Source: a virus
Reading direction: 5' to 3' (one strand)
IMG/VR virus record: IMGVR_UViG_3300005077_000007
Coordinates: 15,249 to 79,248 of that record
Length of the DNA stretch: 64,000 nucleotides
The position numbers and the translations under genes were made by a program. Shown piece by piece: positions 8,701-45,322 of this stretch (the first letter of the stretch is position 1; every line of letters begins with the position of its first letter). Under the pieces are notes generated by a model, which saw nothing but the letters and a program-made list of their open reading frames with translations, was not told the origin of the DNA and did not search any database.

Positions 8701-9921
8701 CTCTCCCCTAAGAATAGCGCAGGCCGTTAGATCAATATTGTTTCTGCTCGCAAAGCTCGCCATTGAGGACCAAGTTGCCCCATAATCCTTACTTACCAAT
8801 ATTAATCCGTTACTACCAACGGCAAGGAGTAGGGTCGTATCTTCATCAACAACCTTTGCCATGCTACGCACCGTGTTAGTACCATCAAGGTCATAAATAC
8901 TTGTTGTGTTTCCGATTGCCGCCGGGGTAGCACCATCTGAATTGATCGTTGTCCAATTCGCAAAATCGCGGCTAAATACAACCTGAACGTCACGACTATC
9001 CCCCTGGTCGCTTGATCGAGATGCATCTCTTGTTCCAGCCGCAATGAATAATCCACCAAGACCATAAGAAATTGAAATTCCACCGTCAATTCTGATGTTC
9101 TCGTTACCCCTAGTAATTGTCATATCTTTTGTTACAAGAGTTACGGATGGATTTGTAATTGTTTCTACAATTGGAAAAACGAATAAGTGCATTCGTCCTT
9201 CCTTTGGTGCGGTTGAATCATCGCCGTAATGAGAAATAAGAATGTAAATGTTTTTATCTACTGAACATGCCGCAATTGATGGAGTATTGATCTTCGTAAT
9301 GCCAATCTCTGAAATGAGTTTTTGTGAATATCCCCATGCGACAAAATTGCTTAAGGCATTTGATGAATCCTTTTGGTGCCATCTCCATATAAGAATACGA
9401 TAATCAGATGTAGTATTAATATTCGCTATAACGAACACATAATACGCCCCATCTGACCCAACGGCATGAGCTACTACTCCATCCGTATGTACGGTGAATG
9501 TTTCGCCGGGCAGGAGTGATGAAAAATCTGATGTATCGAGGTCCTGTGGAATGACCCACTCGAGATAAACGCTCGAATCTAGAGCGGCGTTAGTCTTTTT
9601 AATCTTAAACCGGTTTGTCGCGCTTTTGATATCCTGACTTTTGCTAAAAATCGCACTAGCGCCAGTTGTCGTAATGCGTAACTTCGTAGATCCATTTTGT
9701 ATCGCCTTATACGCACTGGTTGGTGCTTCGCCAGAAAGAAAAAGTTCCGAAGAGGTAAGGCGGTTCGAATCGCTCACTTCCGGCTGCGTTGGGAGCATTC
9801 CACCCTCTAGGTCGCTATTTAATATATCGGGATGATTCGAAACGATACTGCTTGGTTCGTCATCGACCGTTTGTACTAAATATAACTCTACCGTATTGCT
9901 CGGTTTCGGCAATGTGCTCAT
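5794..9921 (-). CDS. Tail-associated protein with BNR/Asp-box (beta-propeller-like) repeats (1375 aa)
   Basis: SxDxGxTW-like motifs (VSKDYGATW, RSIDMGESW, VSDDLGVTW, FSRDFANW); immediately follows the TMP. Confidence 0.65.
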   Translation of the reverse strand: MSTLPKPSNTVELYLVQTVDDEPSSIVSNHPDILNSDLEGGMLPTQPEVSDSNRLTSSELFLSGEAPTSAYKAIQNGSTKLRITTTGASAIFSKSQDIKSATNRFKIKKTNAALDSSVYLEWVIPQDLDTSDFSSLLPGETFTVHTDGVVAHAVGSDGAYYVFVIANINTTSDYRILIWRWHQKDSSNALSNFVAWGYSQKLISEIGITKINTPSIAACSVDKNIYILISHYGDDSTAPKEGRMHLFVFPIVETITNPSVTLVTKDMTITRGNENIRIDGGISISYGLGGLFIAAGTRDASRSSDQGDSRDVQVVFSRDFANWTTINSDGATPAAIGNTTSIYDLDGTNTVRSMAKVVDEDTTLLLAVGSNGLILVSKDYGATWSSMASFASRNNIDLTACAILRGEDAEEYIMYAAGWVPKGGAILLRSIDMGESWYLVNAPANMSIQNYIQKEGATQSINAPNGTVDGFYVSTEDFQRNSDNAFPYSLTNALIASMGEIRKILVNHSSGDTYQIFGERIMLYLIGKDKICWVDNAQKSTNINTNPNSPEIVYGFRFQDSNLMTGCFLTQGIEQAELLVAGHIALNTEFPSNSGRDRAQYAAESGWENVPRFCRIKNATFARRGNNQKYNLENGFYFSVHPVGTGLMITDCDRASSTLVYAIDELGNFIEWTPNSSVTHLISATGRPTPPSVRDIAKIITKLPRRIEGTISAHRYASVAIAWSGTQDNAIAQIYAGHGSTLYVSDDLGVTWKETKTELNMISSLVILNEETVIMADDKIVQYNPILRAYPYLSSMSDGSIWLSVSNLTFGRVEVWKIENNRNFSNDIVKDFYRVFPPFIQIGGKEADETTGTFESIAFNADIPTDNSISDAVPRSSLVEAQEGTVFLATYDRILATTLALQSWYLSTSPNIPIPMYRFTSNAPDWTDTQMRRTLTMSQYGNCPIYAFFVSTAGTPGVAVSRILVDVPADGSVFIDMPIIPEKMQSIGIGSLAVIWSGMSVIGDSYDIGTESQYSARQAVLEESPQYFWRNDSDTKFITNSANIEFLWNKRADGEGSVYNVNAISLIGTNFPYARWAVSVPEYRGTTFPLDKSQYIEFEMSAIIHQGIFYTNAAAASSGTWNNVVHDPSLTLIPNQYGDSGNAYYVLIAKSMNGISSPANCEIRKIISNTKNMIYYDGDPVDLTAVAGQTVEYAIFADVMFNNGSNGENRDDYGYPQPELAGTEKEFCQWIRLTIPNIYNTAEGYHKIGKIIIGRHIPFYVVTENGELPRDRFNSGWKFSINAETNIERSQTGLSRVKHIGQIVKSYELQYENIESWQVDVFYNLLFPKIYQAFVLVFDSQTPTSAKLVRLSSQIEGNHVGGEIFSHGVRIAEVK

Positions 9922-12900
9922 TATTGAACCCCCGCTCTCGTTCTTACCCTCGGCATCCCACTACGCTCTACTTTTGATACCTTTGCAGGAATATTTTTAC
10001 CATCAATATTCACATATACATTGATATTACTACCATTCCCAATTGATGTATTCAAGTCATCGATTGCTTTTAATAACTTATCCTCCTGCTCTGGCGCACG
10101 AACCGTTTCCTGACCGTCCATGACCATTACCCGAGGGGCGTTCCTTGGGCCAGATATCCTTACATATGACGGCGTCTGCGCACGCTCCTGGAATTTCACA
10201 TTCCCTTGGTCGATAAATCCAGTCCCAACTCCGAACATGGAACCAAGCGAAGAAATTGCTGGATAAATAGGGGCGGCAATTCTATTAAGATCCCGTTGCG
10301 CCTCGACCGCTATATTGGAAGCTTGAATGAGCATTTTTGTGGCCTGCTGACTCTTTCCAGCCGCAAAAAGTTCTGCTACATCCGCAAACATAACTCCAAC
10401 TTCGGTAATTCGTTTTCCAAAAACGCTATCCTTACTCATTAAGCGTTCGTTAATGCTTTTCGTGATTCCATCAACGAATGTTTCGCCAAGCCTCTGTCCA
10501 GCAGTAGACATATCGCCAGTCTTTATAACTGTCTGAAAATATTCCCCAAAAGACTGGAAAGTTTCGTTCACTTTCTCAATGGCTCTTTCTAATTTCTGAA
10601 AATGTATCATACCATCGTTCGCAACAGCCACCAATGATAGCTGTGCCTCATCAGCGGCTTTTGGCACCTTATTGAGCGCCATAATAGCCTGGGTTGCTAT
10701 TCCGCGCATATAATCAAGCGACCCTGATGTCGAAAAAATCGCCGGATCGACCTGACGCCGACCTCCCATTGACTGATTTTTCCTAGCTCCCAAAAGTGCG
10801 CTTTCTATAGTAAATTCACCACCCTTTTTCTTTCCAAAATATGGCAGAAATTGTGGAGCCATTTTATTTAAATATTCTACTGAATCTTCAGCAGAAAGAC
10901 CAAGGGCAGTAAAGTTATTCACCAACGCATTCACAGCCTGATTCGGAGAATACGCACCAAGCCCAGGCGATCTACCAGCGGGGAAAGTTCTCCCAAAAAT
11001 AGCCCCCAACTCCCTAGCGCGTGGAGTAATTGCTGATTGAATTGCTGGATTTACTGGATACCACGGACCACCCTCCATCCCAAATAGGCGAGTATTAATA
11101 CGACCCTTTCCCCCGGATGTCATCGTCGGAAGTCCTACGTTACCAAAGAAATCCCCAAACCATTTTCCAAGAAAATGCTCAGTCATCTTTGGTTTAAACA
11201 TCCCAGCAAGCTTCATGATAAATTGATTCGGGTCGAGTAATGCAACCAATGGTTCAGGTAGTCTACCAATTGGTTCGTTTAGGAACCCCATTGGTCCAGC
11301 CTTCATGGCTGCTCTTCTGATACTTTCCTCAGTCTGGAACGGAGCATTTCTCATCTTTTTTAATACTTTACTAGCCTCTATGGCCTGGTAAATACTCATA
11401 AGTGCCGCCACGACCCATCCAACAACCGGAACAGCGCCACTCACTGTAGAAACCCCAGCGGCGGCAGATGTCGTTGCTGCCGTAGTTGCGCCAGCAGTTC
11501 CCGCCGTTCCTGCGGCAACACCAGCCGGAATAGCGGATGTCACCGCTCCGCCAGCAACCGACATCCCGTATGAAGCCGCCTGAGTTGCTGGGATAGCCCC
11601 AGCGGCTACCGCACTGCCACTACCAGTTAGGCTTCCTAATATTCCACCTAGCCCAACCTTTCCGGCAATAGCCGATATCCCAGCGCCAATCTTATCCGTA
11701 AGGCCAAATCCCTGCAATAATCCACTCGTATTTCCAGCGCCAATACCAAGTAACTTAAATATTCCACCACCAATTTTTGTTCCAGCAATAGCCTTACCAA
11801 TTCCAGTACCAGTAAATTTCCCTAATAATCCGGTAATACCTCCGGAGATTTTTCCACCAAATCCACCAAATTTATCACCCAATATATTGCCTAAAAATCC
11901 TCCACTATCTTGCCCACCAACAAACTGATTAATAAGATTACTAGCTGGTTGCGATTCACCAAGAGATGGCATACGGATAAGATCAGAAATATCCATGTTG
12001 GTATTGACCGGAGCCATGACGGTACCAATGCCCTGCTGCGGTGATGAAGGGGTTGGCGTAGCCGCTCCCGCGCCGGAAGATGATCCACCAAAAATTTGAT
12101 CGAATAATCCGCCAAATCCACCAGAAAAATCTCCCTTAAAAATCTTTCCAATATTCTCTCCAGCCTTATCGGCACCCTGCTTTGTTATACCAGGAAGCCA
12201 CTCAAGGAAGTTTTTCTCAATTTTCTTATCCCATCCAATCTTTTCTTTTAATGTGTAATCTAGGGATTGTCTAAAAATATCCAACGCAGTTGATTTAAAA
12301 GCGCTCTGAAAGACATCACCAAGATTTTGCGTTCCAGATGCTAGTCCCTCAATGGCTGTTCCAACCTGATTGTTCAAAACATCGCCAAGGGAAATAAATT
12401 CACCACGAAGCTCTCGTATCTTGAGTATCTGACGTTCAAGCTCATCTATTCTTTGCCATTCTGCTGCTTTCTTTTCTTCGCTAGCTTGAGCAATTCCAAC
12501 TTCTTTTTTCGCTAAATCAAGCTCTGATCGCTTCTGCGCCAACTCCGCTTCGAGCTTGTCCGTATTATCCGATGCTGTCTCAAGGCTTAATCTTCCCTTA
12601 CTTGTTTCTAGTGCCGCCAGAAGAGCCGCCCTCCTAGCCCGAGCTTGCAATACCTCCCCTTCCTTATCCAGCATTACGCCCTCAGCCCTTTTTTGTTCAA
12701 TCACGAACGGCAGTGTTGCCGATTTGATTGCTTTTTGAACCTCTGATGATGGTAGTCCTTTATCTACGGCAATCTTTGCTTCGATACCTTTTTTTTCGGT
12801 AACAGCCTGAGTAGTATAGTCAAATGCTTCCTTAGCTATCCTTGCCGCATCCTCACGAACGGCAATCTCTTTATCTGCAATTTCGATTTGCTTTGCTAGG

Positions 12901-15900
12901 CTGTTCGCCTCTAGCGCGTAAATCTGCCGTGTGATATCCAGCCGCTGCTGAACAAGGCTTACGGTCGTCTTTGCTCCATCAACCGCCACCTGCGCGGCGT
13001 CTCTTTCTTTTGTAGCTATTTCTATTTTCCTATCATCATTTCTTCTCTCAAGAATATGACGATGACCAATGATATCTGAGATTTCCTCTTCTACGGCCCT
13101 TTTTTCAACTAATCTTGGTGTTCGCGGAAGTGAATCAATCCTCAATGCCTCTAGTTCGCGCTCCTTCTTTTGCTGAAGTGCGCGAAGGTCTGTCGTTGCC
13201 CCCTGGTCTCCAATTATGGCACGCTCAATTGGGACAATCTGCGACTGAATACCGATAATCTTTATCTGCGTAAGAAGTTGAAGCCTCTTATCTTCTACCG
13301 CTTTTAATTCCTTTTGTATGCGTAACCGTGCTATTAGTATTTCATTCTGGGCTGCGAGAAGATCGCCCTCTGCTCGGAGACGGTTAGCTCTCTGTTGGTC
13401 AAGATAGTTATCTGCCGATCTCATCTCAAATCTTTTCTTCAACTCGCCATGTAGTATTTCTAATGAATATGGGACTAGTCCAGTAGCCCCCAGCATGGAT
13501 CTTTCGAATATCTTGGCAATTCTTAGCGACATTTTTTTCAAAGTTAGATTATTCAACGCAACGGCCTGATCCCTTGTATCGTCTAATATGCTTTTCAGTT
13601 CAGCTTGCTCAACGATCAACTGCCTCTTGGCCTCTCTGCTGTTTTGAGCCGCCGCCTCGGCCTGTTCGCTGGATAAAAAGCGTCCACCAAAGGTCCGACC
13701 TTTCGCCGCCTCGGCCTCTTGCTTTTCTGGTAAGAATTGCGCAGAAAGGAACCTTATTCGTTGAAATGCATATAGAGCTTTCTGGTAGGTTGCCCCCTGC
13801 TTTATGTCATCGTTACCAAAAAATGGATTTGTTAATTCTGGCGTAACGTCGCCATATGGTGTAATGGTAAAACCGGGACGAGTGGCTTTTCCGCGTAGTT
13901 TCTCATCCGCCTCTAGCTTAACCTGCTTTTCTGGTAAAATATCCGGTTCTCTAAAGATTCGCTCATTCGCTCTTGACTTTTCAGAAAGACGCCTTTGTAT
14001 ATCTTTTGATACCCCATACCCAGTTCCACCGCCTATTATTGATCCTATTGCTCCCCCTATCCCGATGCTTATGCCACCAGTAAATGGAGCTAGTATTCCT
14101 CCAATGATACTTCCGATTGTACCGCCAAGCACAAGGCCGGTTCCACTGGCAACCATATTTGGAAGGCCACCTATCCCCGGTATATCCATTTCGGCAATCT
14201 TTTGTATAACGATGAGCAAGCCGGTAGCAGCGCGCCAGGCGCCTTTGATTATTTCCGCAAGCGTGAGAAAGGTATTCTCGAGATTTAACATTCTTTCTGG
14301 ACTTTTTGTGATTGCCGCCAATTCGCCACGTATTGATTTTATTCCTGATTTTAACGATTCCATTGCCGATTCGGTCGTTAAATAAATTATCGATTGATAG
14401 GTGCTTAATAGTGAATTTAATAAACCTTGATATGTATGAACGTTATCTTCTAAGGTAATATAAATACCTTTCAGGAGTTCGTTAAGATATGGACCAAGAT
14501 TTCCCTTACGGGTCTGCTCTCTAATTGATGATTCTGTCAATCCAAGGACGTTACCAAGGATCGTTCTTCCAACGTTTAATCCAGTAAAAATATCTCGCAC
14601 GTCCCTGGCGAGTACGTTAAATGGAACTTGTAAGCGTTGCGCAAGTACGGTTAAATTTTCGATAATTGGTATTGAATCTTTTAACGAAATACCAGCGGAT
14701 CGCGCTGATCCGGCCGTTACCGCAAAGGCTTGCGTCACATGGGAAACCGGTAACCCTAAAGCAATCGAATCTTTTACGAGGGTTTTCATGGCTACGGTCG
14801 ATTGTGTATACGCAGACCGAACCTGATCGTAAATTTTTAACCCTATTCCGGTTTCCTTAACCGTCCGTGGGGCCGTTCTTCCACCAGCGGTAATATTTCC
14901 CGCAACGGTTAGAGTTTCGGCAACGGCTAGACGTTTTTGTTCAAAATCGGATGCAATTTTCGTGATCGAAGCAAATGCTCTAACAATTCCGCGTATGGAA
15001 CGCCAAATAACAAAGAGATTGATTAATTGATGACGAACCTGAGAGAGAGAGTCGGCGATCCCACCTCTTACCGTATCGGCATCCCGAACCGCTTTATCAA
15101 GACCATCGATTGGTGACCTTGTATCCCGTGCTCTACGAGCGCGGCGGTCTGATCGATCGCGCCTGCGCTGTTCCCGCTCCGTCCCTCGACCCCTCTCCCA
15201 CGGATGTTCCCATTCGCCCTCATGATCCCATGTGCCCTCCGCTCGTCTATATCCGCTTGCTCCATATTCTAATAATAGTGGCCTACGGCGCCTTGGGGGT
15301 TCTTCGTAGGGAGTAAAACCAGAACCTCCCCCACTACCGTCCCTAGCCATGCGCTGCCTTTCTATTTCCTCTCTCCGTTCTCGTCTCCTTCTGTGAATTC
15401 CACGAATCCACCCCAATGGTCCAACCACCTGACCTGGCGATGTCCCAGCTAATTCAAAGTTTTGACCGTATATATCAGGAAGCATAATCGGATCATTAGG
15501 GTTTTGCATATTGCCCCTAAGTATTCCACGAAATCTCTCACCCCACCCCCTAAGCATACTCGAGGGTCTCCACGTTCCGGTTATTGGTGCTTGAGATAAA
15601 GTAGGACCAGTACCGGCCATTGCGAAGTTTTGACCGTATAGAGCGGGGATCCTCGCCTCTGCTTCGCCATGCAGTAATCCACGATATCTTTGCACCCAAT
15701 TCCTTATGAAGTCCTTGGGTTTCCATGATCCAGTCATCGGAACTTGCGATAACGTTGGGCCAGCCGCGCCAGTTACAAAGCCTTGACCCAATAGGGCTGG
15801 CAAAAGCATGGGGTCATATGCACTACCAACCCCTCGCCGTGGAATTTGTGGAATAATGGTTGGGCCAGTTCCAGCCATTATGAAATTTTGACCGTATAGG

Positions 15901-18413
15901 GCCGGTAGATTCCTACGCGCCCTTTCTTCTTCATATTCCCGCTCACGAGCTTCCTTATAAGCTTTATATCGTTTTGTTTTTATTCTAAGAAACGATATAG
16001 CGGGAGTTTTATTGGATTGAGGTTCCCATACACCAAATATTCGACTTAACGTCTCTGAGGACTTACCTAATGTGAAGTTCACATCACTCTGGATTGGTTG
16101 AGCCATTAGTCTAGGAATAGGTACTAAGGCCCTGCTTGGGTCTAATGGTGGTACAACACGCCTTCTCTCTCTTTCTTTTTGGGCATAGCCTAGTTCAAAA
16201 AAGGGCTTTAATTCACCAGCCCCGCGCATCGAGAACGCACTCTTCTGATCCTCACCAAATGGACCGAATATATATTCCTTGAGGAAATTTTCCCTTTTCC
16301 CCCTTCTTGATCTTGGATCTATCCAACCTAATGGATGTGCGTTCTTTTTTCCTAAGAAATTCTTAGCGTACTCTTGTTTTTTATTAAATTTATCTATCTG
16401 TGCTTGACTCATTAATCCTTCCCTATAGGCCCAATACGCTAAGTGTGAATAATCTTTTTCCCAGGGATATTCTGTTAATCCCGATGCCTTTATGGCGGAT
16501 AGTAAATTATCAAAAAAATCTAAACGATGAGTGTTTCTATTTATTTCATCCCTTCTTTCCGCAGTAGAGGTACGAGGAGGCCCCCCTATCATTTTTGCAT
16601 CTGGCCCAAATAAACCCCATTCTGCTGCTTTTTTTTGCATATATATATGCCCTGGATCTTTATTTAGGGCCTGTAGATGGTGCGCAAACTCATGAACTAG
16701 TAATGATTTTTCTATGTGGGTTCTACCTTTTGTAGCTTTAGCACCAAGGTATGGTTTTACGTGTATACGTCCACCCCCATAACTAGCGCGACTACCGGTT
16801 GGTGAGGAATTCCATGTTAATATTGGCTCATCTATTCTGCTCCAGCCGGTCGCTTTAGTCATTTTTTCTATCAACTCTTCCGCTCCTTGTCTATTAAGCC
16901 GTTCACCAGAATATTCCTCTGGTATCCGTAAAGTATAACGAGCATCTGTTAGTTGATTAGAACCGGTCACCGGAATTCTCTGCGCTCTTTCCGCGAGGAT
17001 TCTTTGCCCTCGCCTTGATCCCGCAGCTACACCTCCAAGCGGAGGGGATTTTCTAGATCCCCTCTCTGTTTCTAATCTTTGAGCTGTGTTGAAATATTCA
17101 ATTTGATCGCCAGTAAGCAATTTATCTCTATGTGCCCAATACGTCAGTTGTGGATATTCCATAGCCCACGCATACGGAGCCTTCACGGCATTAGTTTTAC
17201 GCGCAGCATGAATTACCCAACGTAAAATTTGATAAAAATCGCTGCGATGCCCAACGACATTAGGGTCCGTATCCGCAGGAACCCCCTTTCGTCTCTGATA
17301 AGCACCATATGTATTTAAAATCCATTGAAGTTCGTGTGCGTACTCATGAAGTACGGTTGATGAATTCGCACGAAGCCTTCTTCTCCCTAAGGCTCTACCT
17401 AATCTCCCTGCGGTACTGATCGTTGGAGCTACGTGAATATTTCCTGGCTCATGCCATGCGTCCGTTAGTCCATAAAGTAATCGGTTTTCCCATGTTAACT
17501 TCGGTGGAGGAGAAGTAATATTGAATTTATTTGCTAAGAATCGATGCACTTTATCAATGATTGCCCGAGCCTGTCTTTCGCTAACCCTATCGCCAGTTAC
17601 ATATTTCTGCGTGTATGGCGTATCTATTAAAGTCTCCTCCTTCATGATTGCCCCTAACCTACCAAACCCACCTCGATTCATACGCACTGCCGGAAGTGAA
17701 ACTTCACGGCGATGCGGGATCATGAGACGTGGGGCAACTGGAGGCATCCCGGAGAACCCTATCATTAACGGCGTCTGCCGTGACGGGGAAGGGCGGTGCT
17801 GCGGCCGTCCTATCGACACGCCAGTTCTATTATAAAATGCTATCTCATCAGAGAGTTTTTTTGCCTCCTGAGGACTAATCCCCATACCTATTGCGGCATT
17901 TATGTATTCGGCTCTTGAGTATTGCCTATTTGGTGTAGTATGACTGATTAATGGACGGCTTGGGGTAATGTTACGCGCAGTATGAAAACCACCGCCAGCA
18001 CTAACGCCCTGTCGTATTGCGTTGCTCAATCGGAGCATCGAGCGCATGATGCGTTCGACACCGGCAAGCGCCTTTTCCATTGCTTGGAATTGTGCTGGAT
18101 TAGTAAAAGAGCGTATAGAACGTTCTAGCCGTGACGAAACCGAAGAGATTCGCGTCAATCTTTCAAGAAGCGGGTTCGTTGATGATATGGACGGAAGGGT
18201 ATTTCGTGGGGATAAAAGCGAAGATGGGCCACCAAGGCGGGCCTGGATACGATCGAGCGTTCCAGCCAGCGATGCGCGACCCATCCTGCGAGAAACTTCA
18301 TTAAGAACTTCTGGAAGTTTGCGAAATCGTGCCTCAAGTTTCTCGAGTTTACCCTCGGTTTGCCTTATATCTGTCTCGAGAATTATCTTGATTTTACGAG
18401 TATCTTCGCTCAC
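9921..18413 (-). CDS. Tail tape measure protein (2830 aa) with two N-terminal HEXXH metallopeptidase-like domains
   Basis: Very long ORF right after the tail chaperones. Helical Ala/Lys/Glu coiled-coil and Gly/Ile-rich hydrophobic segments. HEYAH at 17334-17348 and HEFAH at about 16680-16694. Confidence 0.9.
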   Translation of the reverse strand: MSEDTRKIKIILETDIRQTEGKLEKLEARFRKLPEVLNEVSRRMGRASLAGTLDRIQARLGGPSSLLSPRNTLPSISSTNPLLERLTRISSVSSRLERSIRSFTNPAQFQAMEKALAGVERIMRSMLRLSNAIRQGVSAGGGFHTARNITPSRPLISHTTPNRQYSRAEYINAAIGMGISPQEAKKLSDEIAFYNRTGVSIGRPQHRPSPSRQTPLMIGFSGMPPVAPRLMIPHRREVSLPAVRMNRGGFGRLGAIMKEETLIDTPYTQKYVTGDRVSERQARAIIDKVHRFLANKFNITSPPPKLTWENRLLYGLTDAWHEPGNIHVAPTISTAGRLGRALGRRRLRANSSTVLHEYAHELQWILNTYGAYQRRKGVPADTDPNVVGHRSDFYQILRWVIHAARKTNAVKAPYAWAMEYPQLTYWAHRDKLLTGDQIEYFNTAQRLETERGSRKSPPLGGVAAGSRRGQRILAERAQRIPVTGSNQLTDARYTLRIPEEYSGERLNRQGAEELIEKMTKATGWSRIDEPILTWNSSPTGSRASYGGGRIHVKPYLGAKATKGRTHIEKSLLVHEFAHHLQALNKDPGHIYMQKKAAEWGLFGPDAKMIGGPPRTSTAERRDEINRNTHRLDFFDNLLSAIKASGLTEYPWEKDYSHLAYWAYREGLMSQAQIDKFNKKQEYAKNFLGKKNAHPLGWIDPRSRRGKRENFLKEYIFGPFGEDQKSAFSMRGAGELKPFFELGYAQKERERRRVVPPLDPSRALVPIPRLMAQPIQSDVNFTLGKSSETLSRIFGVWEPQSNKTPAISFLRIKTKRYKAYKEAREREYEEERARRNLPALYGQNFIMAGTGPTIIPQIPRRGVGSAYDPMLLPALLGQGFVTGAAGPTLSQVPMTGSWKPKDFIRNWVQRYRGLLHGEAEARIPALYGQNFAMAGTGPTLSQAPITGTWRPSSMLRGWGERFRGILRGNMQNPNDPIMLPDIYGQNFELAGTSPGQVVGPLGWIRGIHRRRRERREEIERQRMARDGSGGGSGFTPYEEPPRRRRPLLLEYGASGYRRAEGTWDHEGEWEHPWERGRGTEREQRRRDRSDRRARRARDTRSPIDGLDKAVRDADTVRGGIADSLSQVRHQLINLFVIWRSIRGIVRAFASITKIASDFEQKRLAVAETLTVAGNITAGGRTAPRTVKETGIGLKIYDQVRSAYTQSTVAMKTLVKDSIALGLPVSHVTQAFAVTAGSARSAGISLKDSIPIIENLTVLAQRLQVPFNVLARDVRDIFTGLNVGRTILGNVLGLTESSIREQTRKGNLGPYLNELLKGIYITLEDNVHTYQGLLNSLLSTYQSIIYLTTESAMESLKSGIKSIRGELAAITKSPERMLNLENTFLTLAEIIKGAWRAATGLLIVIQKIAEMDIPGIGGLPNMVASGTGLVLGGTIGSIIGGILAPFTGGISIGIGGAIGSIIGGGTGYGVSKDIQRRLSEKSRANERIFREPDILPEKQVKLEADEKLRGKATRPGFTITPYGDVTPELTNPFFGNDDIKQGATYQKALYAFQRIRFLSAQFLPEKQEAEAAKGRTFGGRFLSSEQAEAAAQNSREAKRQLIVEQAELKSILDDTRDQAVALNNLTLKKMSLRIAKIFERSMLGATGLVPYSLEILHGELKKRFEMRSADNYLDQQRANRLRAEGDLLAAQNEILIARLRIQKELKAVEDKRLQLLTQIKIIGIQSQIVPIERAIIGDQGATTDLRALQQKKERELEALRIDSLPRTPRLVEKRAVEEEISDIIGHRHILERRNDDRKIEIATKERDAAQVAVDGAKTTVSLVQQRLDITRQIYALEANSLAKQIEIADKEIAVREDAARIAKEAFDYTTQAVTEKKGIEAKIAVDKGLPSSEVQKAIKSATLPFVIEQKRAEGVMLDKEGEVLQARARRAALLAALETSKGRLSLETASDNTDKLEAELAQKRSELDLAKKEVGIAQASEEKKAAEWQRIDELERQILKIRELRGEFISLGDVLNNQVGTAIEGLASGTQNLGDVFQSAFKSTALDIFRQSLDYTLKEKIGWDKKIEKNFLEWLPGITKQGADKAGENIGKIFKGDFSGGFGGLFDQIFGGSSSGAGAATPTPSSPQQGIGTVMAPVNTNMDISDLIRMPSLGESQPASNLINQFVGGQDSGGFLGNILGDKFGGFGGKISGGITGLLGKFTGTGIGKAIAGTKIGGGIFKLLGIGAGNTSGLLQGFGLTDKIGAGISAIAGKVGLGGILGSLTGSGSAVAAGAIPATQAASYGMSVAGGAVTSAIPAGVAAGTAGTAGATTAATTSAAAGVSTVSGAVPVVGWVVAALMSIYQAIEASKVLKKMRNAPFQTEESIRRAAMKAGPMGFLNEPIGRLPEPLVALLDPNQFIMKLAGMFKPKMTEHFLGKWFGDFFGNVGLPTMTSGGKGRINTRLFGMEGGPWYPVNPAIQSAITPRARELGAIFGRTFPAGRSPGLGAYSPNQAVNALVNNFTALGLSAEDSVEYLNKMAPQFLPYFGKKKGGEFTIESALLGARKNQSMGGRRQVDPAIFSTSGSLDYMRGIATQAIMALNKVPKAADEAQLSLVAVANDGMIHFQKLERAIEKVNETFQSFGEYFQTVIKTGDMSTAGQRLGETFVDGITKSINERLMSKDSVFGKRITEVGVMFADVAELFAAGKSQQATKMLIQASNIAVEAQRDLNRIAAPIYPAISSLGSMFGVGTGFIDQGNVKFQERAQTPSYVRISGPRNAPRVMVMDGQETVRAPEQEDKLLKAIDDLNTSIGNGSNINVYVNIDGKNIPAKVSKVERSGMPRVRTRAGVQ

Positions 18414-18414
18414 T

Positions 18415-18741
18415 TCAATCCACTCCTAACTCGTAAATTTCCTCAAAAAGCTTAATATCTTTTTCGTCGATATTTGGTCTTTTCTCCTTCTCCCAAATGT
18501 AGAACATTTCCTCAACAAATGTTCTGACAAATAAGAAGTCCTCCTTATCCCCACCATCCTCCAAGAACGACTTTTCGAGCCTTGCGTAATCTACCTCGAA
18601 ATATGCCGCCATACCGGCCGAGACCGGACGAACCGATGATGATGTCCACATTAATTCCCATACATTTACGACCCATTCCGGTATTTTATCGAGTATACAT
18701 CCATCCTTACACCATTGATCCCTCGGCCATCCCTCGAACAT
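18415..18741 (-). CDS. Tail assembly chaperone C-terminal part (gpT-like), likely reached by -1 frameshift
   Basis: Lies in the -1 frame of the upstream chaperone ORF, and that frame is open from the slippery site to its stop. Confidence 0.75.
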   Translation of the reverse strand: MFEGWPRDQWCKDGCILDKIPEWVVNVWELMWTSSSVRPVSAGMAAYFEVDYARLEKSFLEDGGDKEDFLFVRTFVEEMFYIWEKEKRPNIDEKDIKLFEEIYELGVD

Positions 18742-18770
18742 TGCCTGATGCGCACAACACTTGCACTCCG

Positions 18771-19328
18771 TTAAATTCCTGTCAGAGGGGTCTGTGTCAT
18801 CTGGTCTGTCGCATTCGCAGAACTTTGGGGTGTACTCTGAGGATGAGAATCTAACGAATGCGTCAATGACTTTTTTGCCTTAAAAACTTCCTCCCTGGCA
18901 AACGCTTCAACATCAAGCGCGCCGCGAGTAATTTCATTGAAACTTTCACCAGACATATGTTCAGCAAAGAACACTAATGTATCAAAATCAAATGGCCAAT
19001 CCTTAGGGGCCGATTCGTCGATCAGTTCCGGATTTTCAAGCAGCACTAGGCATAGCCTCTTGGCATTCCCAACCGTACACCCACGCCAGCCCGTCACTAC
19101 TTCAACAATAAACTTCTTACGGAAACTTACCTCCTCTTCCCAGGTTGTTCCGCGCCGCTGCTTCGTGTCGATGCTCTTCGCAAGTGCCGATAGTTTTCGA
19201 TCCGAGACAACCTTTACTTCGAATTCCAATGCTGGTTCTTTCATTTCCTCATCGGCCGGTAGAACTACAACCCAACGACGTAAAACTTCCTTCTTGAGAT
19301 TTTGTGGTACAAACGGTTTAACAAACAT
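18771..19328 (-). CDS. Tail assembly chaperone (gpG-like)
   Basis: Strong SD (GGAGGTGA); position between tail tube and TMP; slippery heptamer near the 3' end. Confidence 0.8.
   Translation of the reverse strand: MFVKPFVPQNLKKEVLRRWVVVLPADEEMKEPALEFEVKVVSDRKLSALAKSIDTKQRRGTTWEEEVSFRKKFIVEVVTGWRGCTVGNAKRLCLVLLENPELIDESAPKDWPFDFDTLVFFAEHMSGESFNEITRGALDVEAFAREEVFKAKKSLTHSLDSHPQSTPQSSANATDQMTQTPLTGI
18870..18876 (-). other. Programmed -1 ribosomal frameshift site A AAA AAG
   Basis: In-frame GCA AAA AAG; the -1 frame reads VIDAFVRFSSSEYTPKFCEC...CKCCAHQA into MFEGW with no stop. Confidence 0.8.
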
Positions 19329-19957: not shown

Positions 19958-21397
19958 CTAGTATTGACGAATCTTAATAAATGTTCCAGTCGCGGTTGCT
20001 ACACCCGAATCTGCTTCGCCAGGCTCGAACTGAAGCCGGATTCCGCGAAGCCCGTCATCAACATCCTCGAAACTTGGATCTTCAATAAGTTGCGCCTGAT
20101 GCTCGTTACCGGTCGATGCTTCACCGGCGATAAATTCCAGTCGCGTTCCTGGGGTTGAGCTAGCAACCCCGTTTGGACTTACTGTGTATTTAATCTTAAA
20201 TTTTTCACCAGCCTGGAACAGCCCATGCCAATCGCGGTTTCTATCGAACTCCACAACGAGCGTTACTCGCGGGCTAAATTCACTCCAGATGCCATATTCG
20301 ATAAGACCGGTTGCAGCATTGGTATCACCACGGCGCGTAACTCGCGCGCCAAGGTCCATCTCAATCGACTTGACAATCGGCGTATAATCGGTGCCGCTAT
20401 CATCCGTAATGGTAAGTTCGGTTGCCATAAGGCGTGGAGGAAATCCAGGAGAAGAAAGAATCGCTGGATTAGCAACTTTAGTATTTGCGTTATAAATACC
20501 CATCATGGCTGAACGAACCTGCACTGGTTCACCATATGATCCTGTAAACGTGAGGTTACCACGCACACCCGTTGCCGGATATTTACGACCATCAAGATAC
20601 GAATGAATCGTCACTGAATCATGAAATTCGTTCGCAGGAACCCACAGGACTTCTTCCTTACTCACATCATCTGTTGGCGCTGGGTCAGCAAGGTTTTCGT
20701 CATTATAGGTATCAACATATTGATAGGGAGATGTATTTGCATCAACCTCCGCAACAAAGTACCGTACACCACTGGCGCCACCACCAGCAAGTGTTCGATA
20801 AATTCTTAGCTTTGCACCAGCAATCTTTAATGCCGCACATCCCGACCAATCGATTGTCACTGATCCGGTTGGACCAGTTACTGCAACATCCGCATCTGGA
20901 TTAAGAATTGTTGACAACTTAGACTCACCATTGGAGGCGGTTGCAGCTACCAAAGAAGCGCTGTACCTATAATTTCCAGTTGCCATGACTCCGCCGGATG
21001 CTGATGGAGTAGCCGTTACTTCTGAGGTAGCAATTGTTGGCGCAGTATCGCTTACATACCGTGTCTGCTTCCATCCACTCGCGCGAAGTAGGTACGCCCA
21101 CACCGGAGGAACGTTTGGCACGCCCTTACCGAATAGCCAGAACGTTCCGTTAAATTCATAGGTAGGAATCTTCACCATGACGCCATCTGGCGAAAGTGAA
21201 TTCTTTGCCCTATTGAATCTCTGCGTCTCGGTTCTAGCCTGAACAGGATTAAACTCTTCGTACAGGAGCATTTGCTCCATATTGTCCGTTCGTGTGCAAA
21301 TAGTTACGTTGCTACCATCGTTCGTCTGCCGTTCAAGGCCAACCAAAACGACGGTTCTTCGAGTACGGGAAGGAATTGAAGTAGTAGTACAAGCCAT
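19958..21397 (-). CDS. Major tail tube protein (Phage_tube_2-like) with an inserted Ig/FN3-like domain
   Basis: PPVWAYLLRASGW, GVRGNLTFTGSYGEPV, KSIEMDLG motifs; central beta-rich insert (YRYSASLV..LRIYRT..YVDT). Confidence 0.75.
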   Translation of the reverse strand: MACTTTSIPSRTRRTVVLVGLERQTNDGSNVTICTRTDNMEQMLLYEEFNPVQARTETQRFNRAKNSLSPDGVMVKIPTYEFNGTFWLFGKGVPNVPPVWAYLLRASGWKQTRYVSDTAPTIATSEVTATPSASGGVMATGNYRYSASLVAATASNGESKLSTILNPDADVAVTGPTGSVTIDWSGCAALKIAGAKLRIYRTLAGGGASGVRYFVAEVDANTSPYQYVDTYNDENLADPAPTDDVSKEEVLWVPANEFHDSVTIHSYLDGRKYPATGVRGNLTFTGSYGEPVQVRSAMMGIYNANTKVANPAILSSPGFPPRLMATELTITDDSGTDYTPIVKSIEMDLGARVTRRGDTNAATGLIEYGIWSEFSPRVTLVVEFDRNRDWHGLFQAGEKFKIKYTVSPNGVASSTPGTRLEFIAGEASTGNEHQAQLIEDPSFEDVDDGLRGIRLQFEPGEADSGVATATGTFIKIRQY

Positions 21398-26016: not shown

Positions 26017-27678
26017 TTATGCATTCCTTACTATAGGTGGCGAATCTCTTAGTATTTGCTGGAATAACCCCTTTATTTTTATTTCAAGCGGCTCATCTTC
26101 TGAAAAAACACGCTGAAGCTTTTGCGTAGCTAATTCTAAGACCCTGGCCTCTTCTTCCTTCTGGTATTCAACTTCGTATAAATTCCAAATAAGCATACGG
26201 ACTTTCGCGCACATTTCTTCAACATTCTCTGATCTTGTTGTTTCAATAAGGTCATTTAATTTTTCGCCCGCGACAAGGCCCTGCTTTACCTGGTCAATAG
26301 AAATATCTTTTCCAATCTCGAGAATCTCATGCACTTTCTCCTGCTGCGTTACTGATCGAATTTGCGAAATAGTATCATAAATATCCTCACCATGAACACC
26401 ATGATTACAAAGAATCGAAGAAAGAATGCGATCGATAGATCCTCGCTCCCACGCTTCAGGAATACGTTTATCTCCATAAAGAATGGTTGCGACATTTATT
26501 GCAGTATTCATAAGTCCAGAGAGCGTTTCCCCTGTGAATTTTCCAGACCCAATAAGTCGTAAAGTTTCGTCGTATATCTTTCCTTCAGCGCGATCCCACG
26601 GTGCAATAATTCCAAACTCTCGAAAATGTTCAGCAATGTGCTGACGAACTGCTTCGTGATATTTCTGTGGGACACTAAGAGCGCCCTGCTGGAGCATTTG
26701 CGCAACACGATAAATACCAGCTTTTGATGTAGTGAGCTTATCGTCTATAATCCTGTGATGAAGTCCAATGCACGAAGAGATACTCCTAATATCACCACAG
26801 TAAAGAAATGCACCTGCGTACTTTGCCATATTTAGATTACCATCCTGATCTGTTGCGTATTCGGCAACTAATTGTTTCTCATCGGCAAAGTCAATACCAT
26901 CGCCTTCATCCTCCGCAAGGGCATCGCTTATTGTGAATAATACAATCCCGGATTGCTCGGAATCTTCTATCCTATCTGCGTCCTTTTCTTGCTTGCTATT
27001 TAATCCAACGACTGCCCCCTCGCTTGGAATTGAATACATAACTGGGGAGTATTTCTCTAGCGTATCACCGAACATAAATGTCGATTCCTTGTCGGCAATG
27101 GTCGAGCCTGCAATATTAAGCTCACGGGCAATTTTCGCTAATGCACTTGGGTCTGCTGGTAATGGGCAACACGAATACTCCCATAGCGTTTGAGACTTGA
27201 AGAATACCCCAACGATTTCATCTTCCTTTTCGATGAATTCCCAATCCGTACTCGTCCAACCAACGCTAACTCCACGCAAAAATCCCTCACGATACATCTT
27301 ATAGACTGTATCGGCAAATGGATGAATCTCTGCGGTTGGAAACTCCGCTACGCCAACAAGCGATTGTCCGTACTCATCGACTTCCTCTATCTTTTCGTAC
27401 ACAGACCTAGCCACCGGAAGAACCGAAGCGTTATGCACCCATAATACAGTTGGATTCTTACGGAAATATGACAGATCCCAACCAGCTTGATTAATGGCAA
27501 ATCCATCTTCCTTGAACCCTGGGGTGCTCAAGATAAACGGAATACGTCGCGCCGAAACGTCATCTTCTCGCAGAATAGCGGCACGTACATTCTCATGGGC
27601 TACGACAGATCCGATGAAAATCGGTGAACGTCCTAATTTTTGATATTTTTCTAAAAAAACACGATGGTCAAAATTCAT
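26017..27678 (-). CDS. HK97-family prohead protease with a long C-terminal extension
   Basis: GWDLSYFRKNPTVLWVHN, FLRGVSVG, LWEYSCCPLPADPSAL. Confidence 0.88.
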   Translation of the reverse strand: MNFDHRVFLEKYQKLGRSPIFIGSVVAHENVRAAILREDDVSARRIPFILSTPGFKEDGFAINQAGWDLSYFRKNPTVLWVHNASVLPVARSVYEKIEEVDEYGQSLVGVAEFPTAEIHPFADTVYKMYREGFLRGVSVGWTSTDWEFIEKEDEIVGVFFKSQTLWEYSCCPLPADPSALAKIARELNIAGSTIADKESTFMFGDTLEKYSPVMYSIPSEGAVVGLNSKQEKDADRIEDSEQSGIVLFTISDALAEDEGDGIDFADEKQLVAEYATDQDGNLNMAKYAGAFLYCGDIRSISSCIGLHHRIIDDKLTTSKAGIYRVAQMLQQGALSVPQKYHEAVRQHIAEHFREFGIIAPWDRAEGKIYDETLRLIGSGKFTGETLSGLMNTAINVATILYGDKRIPEAWERGSIDRILSSILCNHGVHGEDIYDTISQIRSVTQQEKVHEILEIGKDISIDQVKQGLVAGEKLNDLIETTRSENVEEMCAKVRMLIWNLYEVEYQKEEEARVLELATQKLQRVFSEDEPLEIKIKGLFQQILRDSPPIVRNA

Positions 27679-27688
27679 ATCGCACCCC

Positions 27689-29578
27689 CTAGACCAAAAT
27701 GCACCAACACTGGCCAATACTACCTGCTGCCGAAGTGTCATGGTCTATCTGACATTCTTCGCGTAACCTAAATATCATAAATGCTTTTCCACTGTCAAGG
27801 ACACCCTGATTCATCGCCCAAATGACTTGCTGAACCGCAAGCGAATGGGCGACGTGATTAATGTCCTCAAATGATGTCTTAATTGCGTTTTCGATATCGA
27901 CACCATCATTAATCCACTTAGTGATTTCTTCGTGCAATTGATCGATAATTGATGTCGATTGCAAAATTTGCGCATCGATAGATGATGGAATGTTTTTACA
28001 AAATTCACCACTTCTGAATTCAAACGAAATTTCATCTCCACTTAATTTACCTTTTGAGACTAAATATGCATAATAAAGTGGTTTAAAAAGATTAAATCTC
28101 CATGTTTCGTAATGTTTGCTTTTGTCGAAGTTTGTATTATCAAGATTTTTATAATATTGAGATCGAAGATCATATAACGATCTTTTTATTTTCCTTGATA
28201 CATAATCCGTCACATCACTCACGCTATCGAGCTTTTCTTTAGCTTTTGATTCTATCTCTTTTATCCGTAATTGGTCGATAAAGCTTCCTTTACTTATGCG
28301 CCCATTGCTTTTATTGCTATCATTATTATCCTCAGCATCCTGCGGCGAACGTGGAGTATTTTTGGGAGAATTCTCCTTACGTGGCGAGTCTCCACCATCG
28401 ATTGGTTCAATGCCAAGATCAATTTTTGCAATTCCAGCATTAACAGGAACGCCAGCTTCAACTAATACTTTGAGCGTTTGCGCCTTATCGAGCATATCAT
28501 CCGTGCTAATTGGTAATCCATCGTAATCAAAAAAAGCAGATACCTTTTTTCTAGATGGAACTACCATACGCACGACCTTTCTTGTGAATTCAGATTCAAG
28601 CATTGTGCCAAGCGGGATTACGGCATTTTCGTATTTTATTTTCCGTGCTACACTCAACATATCTCTCCCAAGATTGCTTCCATCAGTTTGGTTTAACATT
28701 TGAACAGGATAATGATATACTGAAGCAATTTCCTCTCTCGTGAATTTTCTACTATCTATGTATTGCGCAGCGGAATGCGGTACCCCAAGCACCTTTAGAT
28801 CAAAATCACCACCAAGAACAGCGATACTCCCTGCGGATTCCGGTCCACCATATATATCGTTCCATTCTTCCATAATGCTACGCTTTGTTGATTCATTAAG
28901 TGGACCATGCTTGTAAGTCAATACTGAATCCGGCGTTGCGTTGTTGCGAAAGAAATATTTATCATATATAACGCGAGCATTATCCGCATCCATCTGTAGC
29001 GCAACGGCCAACCATGGTGGAATACCGATATATTGATCGTAATCATTTGGCATCATACAGTGCACGACGTCCTCAAGCGGAACCCTCACGCGATTCTCTG
29101 TGCTATTGAATGTTATTTCCCATGCTTCGGGTGGATCGTTCGAGGCCCTGCGAACTGGAGCAACCGAAAATTGACCATACACTTCCATGGAAGATGGAAT
29201 GTTGAAAGAATTTTTTCCACGTAAATAAATAAATGCATTTCCCGTCATGAGCATATACGTTGCCCATTGCATAATAAAACGTTGAATGCTTTGATGTTGG
29301 TTTGGATTTTCTAAAAGAACTTTTAATGGATGATTTGGAACTTCAACCCACAATGATTTAAAATATCTTTTTTCTATACCACTTTTTGGGGCATATAGCG
29401 AGAAGGGGACCTGCGAAAGGCTTGTTGCTATATCCGATACAACAGCATATAACCACGAAGTCCTGGATAAATTAGTACCATACTGGTACGTACCTTGTTT
29501 TTTAAATATCCTAGCTACTTCACGAGCGTCAGTATCCCGCTCGTATAAATTTCCGCGATGGTCATATATAGTAACCAT
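27689..29578 (-). CDS. Portal protein (HK97 family) with a C-terminal extension
   Basis: LLENPNQHQS, TGNAF, FFRNNATP, SRKFTREEIASVYHYP. Confidence 0.92.
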   Translation of the reverse strand: MVTIYDHRGNLYERDTDAREVARIFKKQGTYQYGTNLSRTSWLYAVVSDIATSLSQVPFSLYAPKSGIEKRYFKSLWVEVPNHPLKVLLENPNQHQSIQRFIMQWATYMLMTGNAFIYLRGKNSFNIPSSMEVYGQFSVAPVRRASNDPPEAWEITFNSTENRVRVPLEDVVHCMMPNDYDQYIGIPPWLAVALQMDADNARVIYDKYFFRNNATPDSVLTYKHGPLNESTKRSIMEEWNDIYGGPESAGSIAVLGGDFDLKVLGVPHSAAQYIDSRKFTREEIASVYHYPVQMLNQTDGSNLGRDMLSVARKIKYENAVIPLGTMLESEFTRKVVRMVVPSRKKVSAFFDYDGLPISTDDMLDKAQTLKVLVEAGVPVNAGIAKIDLGIEPIDGGDSPRKENSPKNTPRSPQDAEDNNDSNKSNGRISKGSFIDQLRIKEIESKAKEKLDSVSDVTDYVSRKIKRSLYDLRSQYYKNLDNTNFDKSKHYETWRFNLFKPLYYAYLVSKGKLSGDEISFEFRSGEFCKNIPSSIDAQILQSTSIIDQLHEEITKWINDGVDIENAIKTSFEDINHVAHSLAVQQVIWAMNQGVLDSGKAFMIFRLREECQIDHDTSAAGSIGQCWCILV

Positions 29579-33493: not shown

Positions 33494-33520
33494 AACACGT
33501 TCCCTGCTATAATAGCCTTG

Positions 33521-33703
33521 ATGCAAATAAATCTCGACGTATCCTGCCCCGAGTGCCGTACCGGAAAAGTCGAAGCAATTGGACGAGCATTCATTAAGGA
33601 TGAATTATCACTTATCCTTTGGAGATGTCAAGTATGTCAGCACGAGTTTTCTCTCGGAATAAACTACTCTTCAGTGATAGTGAAGGAGGAGATCGTTCAT
33701 TAA
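33521..33703 (+). CDS. Small Cys4 zinc-ribbon protein
   Basis: CPEC-x23-CQVC; overlaps the 5' end of the primase. Confidence 0.5.
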   Translation: MQINLDVSCPECRTGKVEAIGRAFIKDELSLILWRCQVCQHEFSLGINYSSVIVKEEIVH

Positions 33704-43357: not shown

Positions 43358-45322
43358 ATGCAGTTACCAACGGTCGTATCGTTATTTTCTGGTATTGGGG
43401 CCTTTGACCTTGCGGCACAAAGGGCTGGGTTCAAAACGGTTGCGTTTTCGGAGATATGCCCATTTGCAATTCGAGTATTCAAGCGTCATTGGCCCAATGC
43501 TATTGGGTTAGGCGATATTCGGCTCCTGCACGGCCAAGCGATTTGTGAAATAGCGGGTCGTGTCGATGTGATGACGGCGGGATTTCCGTGCTTTACCGCT
43601 GGGCATCTCGTCCTGACGGAACGAGGATACGCACCGATAGAATCGCTCTCGGTCGGGGACCGAGTTGTCACGCATCGTGGTCGATTACGACCAATTGTCC
43701 GTGTTGGTTCGGCGATTAAGCCTGTTGGGCTGCTGAAAGGTAGTGGAATCCGGGTCGGGCATACGGTCACGCTTGACCATCCATATCTGGCTGTCGATTG
43801 GCGTATGCAGAGCACGCGGAGACAAAACAAGGCTATACGCATCGAACACGTCGGAAATGAGCAGTGGGTAGCGGCGTCCGAAATGGTGGGAAAGCAGTGG
43901 TGCGCCCTTACCGAGTATCAACCCGTCGAAGCAGGTAGCCCAACGCCACGGCTTACGCCTCGGCAGGCAATGTTACTTGCGGGGATGTACTTGGGCGATG
44001 GCTGGGTGGGTGGGTATCGAACGAAACGGAAAAAGGTCGTCCTTCTGGCCCTCAATGACCGCAAGTATGAATTCTTTCTCGCACACTTCCCCGGAGTGCC
44101 GCACTTCCGAACGAACGACCGTACCTGTCGAAAAACTATTCTTTGCGATACCAACCTGGCGGAATGGTTGATCGACCAGTTTGGTAAGGGGGCGGCAAAT
44201 AAGCGCATTCCCGCATGGGTGCTCGGGCACCCTGACCGCGATGCCCTGATGCAGGGATACGTCGCTACGGATGGATGCTTCAAGGGCAAGGGCGCGGGTG
44301 TGTCGATTACGACGATTTCTTCGGCGCTTGCTTTTGGGTTCTGTGATCTCTCGGTATCGCTCGGTTTCGTCGCGTCATGTAACGTGCATAACGTAGGGCC
44401 GATGAAGGTGATCGAGGGCCGAACGGTGAACCAACGTCCATTTTGGACGGCACTTGCCATTCCACGCTGGAAGTCGATCAGATCGCGCGTGTATCACGGG
44501 AAACTCTTGCGGGGCATTAGGTCATTCACGCCGTGCGGCGAACGCACGGTTTATAACATCGAGGTCGCCGACGATCATAGCTATGTTGTCCAGGGCGCTA
44601 TTGTTCATAACTGTCAAGATATATCTGTGGCCGGAAAACGATTAGGGTTGGATGGTGGGAATCGTAGTGTATTATTCTACGAGATTATGCGTCTCGTAAG
44701 GGAGATGACAACATATGGGCAGCCGCCAAGGTTCCTTGTTCTCGAAAATGTCCCAGCCCTTCTCTTCAGCGGAGGGGGGAAAGACTTCAGTAGCATTATC
44801 AACTCGATACGAAAATGCGGGGCGCTTGACATTGCGTGGAGAGTTCTGGACGGTCGATATGCCGGAGTACCTCAACAAAGACGACGACTGTTCATTGTCG
44901 CAGATTTTAGAAAAGAATGTGCCGGAAAAGTTCTTTTTGACCAAAATCAGGTGTTTGGGGATCATGAAAGCCATACAAATAAGAAAAAAATCTCCACCGA
45001 AGATCGTATGGAGCGCCTTGTTGAACAAGACGGAACAGTGACGACTTTATGGCCGCGAATAGCAAAAACCTGCACGCGCCGCGACTATAAAGGCCCTCGC
45101 AACGAGGAAATGCAGTGTACGATTGTCATGCACCACGTCAATGACGACAAAGAATGGTATACGATTCGTCGTTTAACGCCAACAGAATTCGCTCGACTCA
45201 TGGGATTTCCGGATGATTGGATCACGGAAGAGAGTGATACAAAAATGTATCAATTATATGGAAACTCTGCCGTTGTTCCATTATTAGAGCAAATCTTTAC
45301 CAGAATTCATATGGAATTATAA
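43358..45322 (+). CDS. C5 cytosine DNA methyltransferase containing an intein
   Basis: Motif I LFSGIG, IV GFP|CQD, VI LENV, VIII QQRRR, X LYGNS. Confidence 0.92.
   Translation: MQLPTVVSLFSGIGAFDLAAQRAGFKTVAFSEICPFAIRVFKRHWPNAIGLGDIRLLHGQAICEIAGRVDVMTAGFPCFTAGHLVLTERGYAPIESLSVGDRVVTHRGRLRPIVRVGSAIKPVGLLKGSGIRVGHTVTLDHPYLAVDWRMQSTRRQNKAIRIEHVGNEQWVAASEMVGKQWCALTEYQPVEAGSPTPRLTPRQAMLLAGMYLGDGWVGGYRTKRKKVVLLALNDRKYEFFLAHFPGVPHFRTNDRTCRKTILCDTNLAEWLIDQFGKGAANKRIPAWVLGHPDRDALMQGYVATDGCFKGKGAGVSITTISSALAFGFCDLSVSLGFVASCNVHNVGPMKVIEGRTVNQRPFWTALAIPRWKSIRSRVYHGKLLRGIRSFTPCGERTVYNIEVADDHSYVVQGAIVHNCQDISVAGKRLGLDGGNRSVLFYEIMRLVREMTTYGQPPRFLVLENVPALLFSGGGKDFSSIINSIRKCGALDIAWRVLDGRYAGVPQQRRRLFIVADFRKECAGKVLFDQNQVFGDHESHTNKKKISTEDRMERLVEQDGTVTTLWPRIAKTCTRRDYKGPRNEEMQCTIVMHHVNDDKEWYTIRRLTPTEFARLMGFPDDWITEESDTKMYQLYGNSAVVPLLEQIFTRIHMEL
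43589..44611 (+). mobile_element. Intein (341 aa) with LAGLIDADG homing endonuclease at the MTase catalytic PC motif
   Basis: Starts CFTAGHLV, ends YNIEVADDHSYVVQGAIVHN then CQD; GMYLGDG and GYVATDG motifs; visibly GC-richer than its flanks. Confidence 0.92.

Follow-up and report, generated by a model that had tools for sequence, protein, structure and literature searches.

Why would a tail tape measure protein (TMP) contain two copies of a zinc metalloprotease domain? TMPs set tail length, form a conduit for DNA, and sometimes bear motifs that degrade the cell wall. The question is posed by IMG/VR record IMGVR_UViG_3300005077_000007, a 108,596-bp sequence that comes from an uncultured long-tailed phage and bears direct terminal repeats. 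The window analyzed here is the 64,000-nucleotide stretch from position 15,249 to 79,248 of that record, and coordinates below refer to it. On its minus strand, one uninterrupted open reading frame (ORF) of 2830 codons occupies 9921-18413, with a GTG start, an AGGAG sequence 9 nt upstream, and no cysteine codon. The original prediction, made from the sequence alone, placed a tandem duplication of HEXXH domains at 16370-17580 (aa 278-682 of the 2830-aa ORF), regarded the ORF as a TMP, and suggested that its first roughly 1100 aa might be injected cargo. In the analysis described here, the two domains prove to be paralogs of the SprT/Wss1 type, each with its catalytic residues intact, and the phage may carry these proteases into its host on the TMP, which exits the tail immediately before the genome does.

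The tandem duplication was recovered by both BLASTP and a hidden Markov model (HMM) of the domain family. When aa 270-480 were compared with aa 480-700 by BLASTP, the two regions were 27% identical over 216 columns (E 4e-14), a sequence similarity well beyond chance, and the family HMM found exactly two copies in the protein, with envelopes at aa 268-484 and aa 497-714. Because of these envelopes, the repeated unit measures about 215 aa rather than the roughly 170 aa first proposed, and it reaches slightly outside the span originally noted. The ends of both units share a PLG....SRRG[QK]R tail, and all six motifs originally reported as common to the domains (P.LTW.N, IHV.P, HE.AH.LQ, H..DF...L, Y.W..[DE]Y..L.YWA.R, and QI..FN..Q) are found in both copies.

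Domain 1 (16962..17612, minus strand; 123 bits with the family HMM) has the active-site motif HEYAH at aa 356-360 (17334..17348) and a putative third zinc ligand, His389, in the context G-H-R-S-D-F (17247..17249). Domain 2 (16272..16925, minus strand; 107 bits) has the motif HEFAH at aa 574-578 (16680..16694) and its putative third ligand, His629, in the context T-H-R-L-D-F (16527..16529). The gap from HExxH to the third histidine is longer than usual, at 28 residues in the first copy and 50 in the second. Conservation of HExxH among homologs and the presence of a downstream ligand both hold: the H, E, and H of the motif and the third histidine are invariant in 44 of 44 distinct family members, and four positions after the third histidine, 38 members have F and the other 6 have Y. 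The two TMP copies, at 27-34% identity, also retain all 13 invariant columns of an eight-sequence family alignment (A2). Since every family-invariant residue has been kept despite this divergence, the sequences argue that both copies are under selection for catalysis, and because each has an intact H-E-x-x-H and third histidine, both domains are probably catalytic.

The fold of the domains was approached by structure prediction. AlphaFold run on the single sequence of aa 270-700 was uninformative, with a predicted local distance difference test (pLDDT) of only 39.9, whereas domain 1 modeled from a 23-sequence alignment gave a confident model (pLDDT 80.8, predicted template modeling score 0.76). 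In this model, an N-terminal helix (residues 8-26 in model numbering) is followed by four strands (34-37, 48-51, 54-57, and 76-79), a helix that holds HExxH (80-95, with His85-His89), and a helix starting at the third histidine. An exhaustive structural search of 48,161 solved chains, independent of Foldseek, placed yeast Wss1 (5xbn) first, with Z 7.2 and a root-mean-square deviation of 2.9 Å over 93 residues. Below it came BepA, thermolysin, ZMPSTE24, abylysin, Spartan (6mdx, Z 5.7), Schizosaccharomyces pombe Wss1 (5ln5, Z 5.3), selecase, and ArdC (6sna, Z 4.6), and nearly all entries in the list are zinc peptidases. The zincin fold that had been proposed is thus upheld as far as the model goes. 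Foldseek against the PDB returned nothing at E<=0.001, but its top matches were mostly zincins, and the best match among viral models was an 'SprT-like' protein of an uncultured phage (E 1e-3, probability 1.00). Entries for the domain in a language-model atlas likewise include SprT-like clusters.

The link to SprT by sequence profile is indirect. The Pfam SprT-like family PF10263 matches the TMP copies only below threshold, on the HExxH helix, at 12.2 and 12.8 bits, and it touches 11 of 23 family members in a Pfam scan. One stand-alone member, P0021, passes the PF10263 cut-off (30.1 versus 25.6 bits) and is a bona fide member of that family. Alignment of the two TMP domains with a nine-sequence sub-alignment including P0021 by hhalign gave a probability of 98.4% and an E value of 5e-15. 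Searching PDB sequences with the region itself or with profiles A2 and A3 returned chance-level matches only, and neither PHROGs nor NCBIfam holds a model matching the domain. Because the consistency of the structural list, the motif, and this profile link combine, the SprT/Wss1-type assignment can be regarded as secure, with little room for doubt.

Of the broader SprT/YgjP/MPTase grouping originally offered, the SprT part stands on fold and profile link. The MPTase/ArdC part does not: the polyvalent-protein MPTase/ArdC family (PF18818) gives no Pfam match at E<=1, the third ligand is His and not Glu, and the Z of 4.6 for ArdC, under Wss1, BepA, thermolysin, and others, amounts to general zincin similarity only. 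YgjP-like proteins (PF01863) were also set aside, as the TMP copies have no match and the one family member that has one, P0021, scores 23.5 bits, short of the cut-off of 26. DUF4157 (the HExxHxxQ zincin associated with extracellular contractile injection systems), peptidase M23, and M78/ImmA gave no Pfam match, or merely a stray one, for the TMP copies. Bacterial SprT proper, which pairs the SprT-like domain with a Zn_ribbon_SprT domain (PF17283), was rejected since its C-terminal Cys4 ribbon is absent from this cysteine-free protein of 2830 aa.

Compared with SprT-like, Spartan, and Wss1 proteins (the SprT-like and WLM families; PF10263; 5xbn, 5ln5, and 6mdx), the TMP domains share a HExxH on a helix after a small beta-sheet and a third histidine in an H-x-x-[DE]-F motif (HRSDF and HRLDF in the TMP), which is also the form of the third-ligand motif of Spartan. 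The gap of 11-14 residues seen in most family members matches that of Spartan, where His115 is followed by His130 within H-G-P-E-F. The TMP domains differ in the 28- and 50-residue gaps, in PF10263 scores of just 12-13 bits, and in a family-specific C-terminal helical pair, Y-P-W..E-Y..W-A-R-D-G-L. They also have neither the Cys4 zinc ribbon, for want of any cysteine, nor a known DNA-binding module, and the domain is embedded twice in a putative virion protein.

The family to which the domains belong is small and consists almost wholly of free-standing proteins. A profile search run exhaustively over 1.84 billion cluster representatives found only six small proteins besides the TMP, and word-indexed, genome, and metagenome scans brought the family to 44 distinct sequences. 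All the other members found are free-standing ORFs of 103-273 aa, and the TMP is the sole giant host found. The stand-alone phage proteins (P0002-P0022; L010-L036 except L019 and L025) share the domain end to end with the TMP copies, with identical invariant residues; they differ in being single-domain genes among small accessory or early genes, and most read HEFAHHLD where the TMP copies end in LQ. Where context exists, these relatives lie on phage contigs among small accessory genes, near terminase, RecT, ligase, and similar genes, outside tail modules. None has an N-terminal hydrophobic or signal-like segment, and because of this and their position among accessory genes, the stand-alone relatives look like proteins that act in the cytoplasm. 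A conserved gene partner beside them was sought and not seen, and two 86-aa neighbors were unrelated. One relative, P0010 (L004:10001-10423, plus strand), is the sole plus-strand gene in 20 kb of minus-strand phage genes, a moron-like layout.

Searches for further cases were extensive. Absence of the family from 50,697 GenBank phage records rests on tblastn with four query sequences (the two TMP domains, P0003, and P0021), which returned nothing; the tape core gave no match in these records either. A scan of 185,579 species genomes found the family in one, at a locus of a Terriglobia metagenome-assembled genome. Word-indexed searches of longer proteins and of TMP-length proteins recovered only the query itself, no relative of the phage turned up when IMG/VR was scanned with its major capsid protein, the tape core, or the domain profile, and a metagenome scan with TMP-type motifs gave no match. 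Since all other members are stand-alone, none occurs in the phage records, and one alone occurs in the species genomes, the TMP fusion is unique within what could be searched, and the family is, judged by its sequences, a rare, phage-borne branch of the SprT-like zincins.

A giant ORF on metagenome contig Ga0268276_1003598 (L025:3-8519, plus strand; at least 2838 aa) was considered as a second fused member and rejected. It is a classical polyvalent protein that scores 13.5 bits with the family HMM through its HEFAHHLD helix alone. It comprises an N6-methylase-like N-terminus, an AAA_34/Helicase_C_4 helicase, and LPD38. Its zincin shares the HEFAHHLD helix with the stand-alone family but has a Glu-type motif downstream.

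Polyvalent proteins offer one parallel to the TMP. Like the domains described here, polyvalent MPTase/ArdC domains (PF18818, 6sna) are zincins, sometimes in multiple copies, in giant proteins delivered with the DNA of mobile elements. In the polyvalent-protein MPTase, the third ligand is a Glu located on the second C-terminal helix, and the domain has been proposed to process its own protein, to attack host proteins, or both; TMPs do not occur in the survey of polyvalent proteins (Iyer et al. 2017, PMC5512222). With a His ligand and no Pfam match, the TMP domains are not members of that group, although a like function is plausible by analogy. Another parallel is with enzymes embedded in TMPs, such as the Rpf/M23 motifs of mycobacteriophage TM4 and the C-terminal metallopeptidase of T5 Pb2, where a catalytic domain likewise lies within the TMP and is carried out at infection. 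Those enzymes are muralytic, of other folds, and act on the wall, whereas the domain here is of the cytoplasmic SprT type, is duplicated, and lies in the N-terminal third.

Identification of the ORF as a TMP, part of the original prediction, is supported by its surroundings and by its own C-terminal two-thirds. The minus-strand virion module runs through terminase large subunit, portal, protease, major capsid, adaptor, a weak tail-tube match, two small ORFs, and the giant ORF, beyond which three genes (1375, 539, and at least 1397 aa) give BNR, LamG, and PKD matches. A candidate gene for tail assembly chaperone G (18771..19328, minus strand; 185 aa) is assigned by position and by its frameshift partner. 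The T frame (18415..18879, minus strand) is open in the -1 frame and overlaps G by 109 nt; the overlap starts at the slippery heptamer A_AAA_AAG (18870-18876), which fits the upstream frame in X_XXY_YYZ register, and the giant ORF begins one base past the stop of the T frame. From its sequence, the pair reads as a textbook -1 programmed frameshift, the G/GT signature that precedes TMP genes. Within the protein, aa 1150-1650 have language-model features like those of the TMP_3 and PhageMin_Tail atlas clusters, and phrog_30973, a PHROG of unknown function, matches aa 1200-1361. Curated TMP models (PF10145, PF20155, PF06791, TIGR01760, and similar) gave no match, with no Pfam family at E<=1 and no NCBIfam model. 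Because the G/GT pair lies directly upstream, distal tail genes lie downstream, and aa 1150-1650 resemble TMPs, the ORF is best supported as the tail tape measure protein.

The protein divides into two parts of different character. The tape core (aa 1131-2830; 9924..15023, minus strand) is a low-proline, helical part (2.4% proline in aa 1131-2100) with glycine-rich stretches (21-27% in three 100-aa windows of the protein) and two hydrophobic, transmembrane-like segments at aa 1424-1454 and aa 2317-2346. By comparison, aa 1-1130 contain 6.8% proline and have a net charge of +68, versus +29 over the other 1700 aa. This N-terminal extension includes, after the two protease domains, four repeats of about 35-55 aa with the consensus [LI]P[AD][LI][YL]GQ[NG]F..AGT[GS]P...P.TG.W.P (aa 836-1010; 15384..15908, minus strand), which could be docking or cleavage sites. 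A fifth, degenerate copy is possible at aa 1046. An Arg/Glu-rich linker (aa 1011-1130; 15024..15383, minus strand) separates the extension from the tape core; aa 1001-1100 hold 29 R+K and 19 D+E, with a mean hydropathy of -2.0 and RRRR runs. The absence of cysteine from the whole chain compares with 94 cysteines in 7858 aa of 15 neighboring ORFs (1.2%). A basic, proline-rich, cysteine-free composition of this kind fits the proposal of injected cargo, rather than tape, in the first ~1100 aa.

In siphophage tails, the C-terminus of the TMP is at the tail tip and the N-terminus is near the head and the DNA end, and at infection the TMP is the first to come out of the tail and takes part in building a membrane conduit. 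Wss1 and Spartan, the nearest characterized relatives of the family, cleave DNA-bound proteins and are stimulated by DNA. Because of this exit order, the DNA stimulation of the Wss1 and Spartan relatives, and the cytoplasmic look of the stand-alone family, the domains are tentatively read as virion-delivered proteases that would act at the very start of infection on the TMP, on host proteins encountered by the DNA, or on both, a reading given slightly less than an even chance. Both domains would ride in the virion as parts of the TMP. During infection, the TMP would exit the tail C-terminus first, and the hydrophobic segments of its core would enter the envelope; the N-terminal third would exit last, beside the leading DNA end, and then refold. 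Once refolded, it may release itself by proteolysis from the membrane-embedded tape, cleave host proteins at the incoming DNA, or do both. A stronger version, in which the basic, DNA-end-associated SprT-type pair would enter the cytoplasm on the tip of the genome and destroy host proteins that bind or attack DNA (restriction, end-binding, or other defense proteins), is doubtful, and rather unlikely in so specific a form.

Several points weigh against delivery of an active protease. Neither TMP domain alone reaches the Pfam cut-off of PF10263, the structural Z scores, at 5-7, are modest by absolute standards, and the three-ligand metal site is putative. No relative of the phage and no second TMP with the domain were found in the searches above, and presence of the N-terminal third in the virion is inferred. 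Folded domains of 200 aa in a trimeric TMP would be too big for a tube lumen of about 4 nm, so that storage in an unfolded state or at another site would be needed. Moreover, all previously characterized enzyme domains of TMPs are muralytic (the TM4 motifs and T5 Pb2), and none is known to be a cytoplasmic-type protease.

This last precedent is what favors an envelope-degrading enzyme, in which the domains would cleave stem peptides of peptidoglycan or envelope proteins in the manner of the M23 and transglycosylase motifs of other TMPs. Such a role is improbable given a fold and motif of the SprT/Wss1 type and not of M23, M15, or lysozyme; no muralytic Pfam family is matched even at E<=1, the stand-alone relatives have no signal peptides, and the N-terminal third would be expected to come last out of the tail. 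A somewhat better case, though still an unlikely one, can be made for an autoprotease of assembly or maturation only, which would cut the TMP, the chaperones, or other tail proteins while the tail is built, the extension then being discarded without ever entering the host. TMP processing is common, as in lambda gpH and T5 Pb2, and the protease responsible is often unknown. Autoproteolysis has also been proposed for zincin domains in giant phage proteins (Iyer et al., PMC5512222), and the PLG....SRRG[QK]R tail after each domain, followed by the fourfold repeat, could speculatively supply cut sites. The stand-alone relatives, however, are unattached to tail proteins and lie outside tail modules, and for that reason the family would appear to act in trans, in a role other than assembly. 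Two diverged copies with intact active sites exceed what one self-cut requires, and a wholly cysteine-free chain of 2830 aa suggests export of the entire chain.

Two other explanations remain. The duplicated domain might be dead structural filler that adds tape length or serves for docking, since embedded motifs in mycobacteriophage TMPs can count toward tail length. A tape of all 2830 aa would correspond to a tail about 425 nm long, and Gordonia phages have TMP genes of about 9 kb with tails of about 500 nm (PMC4919401). Against this, the catalytic and family-invariant residues are all kept in both copies at 27% identity, and the region is proline-rich with a predicted globular alpha/beta fold, unlike a helical tape, so that filler has a low probability. 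Alternatively, the ORF may be not a TMP at all but a polyvalent ejection protein packaged in the capsid. A giant, cysteine-free chain with multiple zincin copies does resemble polyvalent proteins (PMC5512222), and the HEFAHHLD helix recurs in the metagenomic polyvalent protein described above. Yet the gene occupies the canonical position after the tube genes and the frameshifted G/GT pair and before large distal tail proteins, its product has TMP-like features at aa 1150-1650, Gly-zipper and transmembrane segments, and a long, low-proline helical core, Pfam detects no LPD, helicase, methylase, or further polyvalent-protein domain in it, and the tail module contains no other TMP candidate. These features make a capsid-packaged protein very improbable.

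Elsewhere in the window, between the tube-like gene and the chaperones, a 479-aa gene (19958-21397, minus strand) has no Pfam, PHROGs, or NCBIfam match. The gene between portal and major capsid (26017-27741, minus strand) encodes 574 aa, the first 200 of which match head-maturation-protease and major-head-protein PHROGs, which suggests a protease-scaffold fusion. In the terminase large subunit (30959-33526, minus strand; 855 aa), terminase matches flank a LAGLIDADG homing-endonuclease match at aa 354-503, and the insert is probably an intein. A second intein is possibly present in the product of 43358-45322 (plus strand), where DNA methyltransferase matches at aa 3-78 and aa 419-653 flank a stretch of about 350 aa with a match to part of a ribonucleotide-reductase PHROG.

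TMPs with embedded enzymes and zincins in giant injected phage proteins were already known. A search of the full-text literature for TMPs with a SprT, HEXXH, zincin, or metalloprotease domain found no TMP described as containing a SprT-type protease, and what appears to be new is a rare SprT-like subfamily together with its first fusion, in tandem, into a TMP. A duplicated protease of the SprT/Wss1 type would widen the repertoire of TMPs to a domain type that in other settings works in the cytoplasm on proteins bound to DNA. It would allow TMPs to bring cytoplasmic effectors into the cell at time zero of infection, ahead of phage gene expression, which bears on how phages survive the first minutes against host defenses and on which protease processes TMPs. 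Should the proteases prove to enter the cytoplasm with the genome tip and attack host proteins, the TMP would be a previously unrecognized route for anti-defense enzymes, and the stand-alone relatives may do the same job after early expression. The fusion thereby hints at where and when a phage-only subfamily of SprT-like proteins may act.

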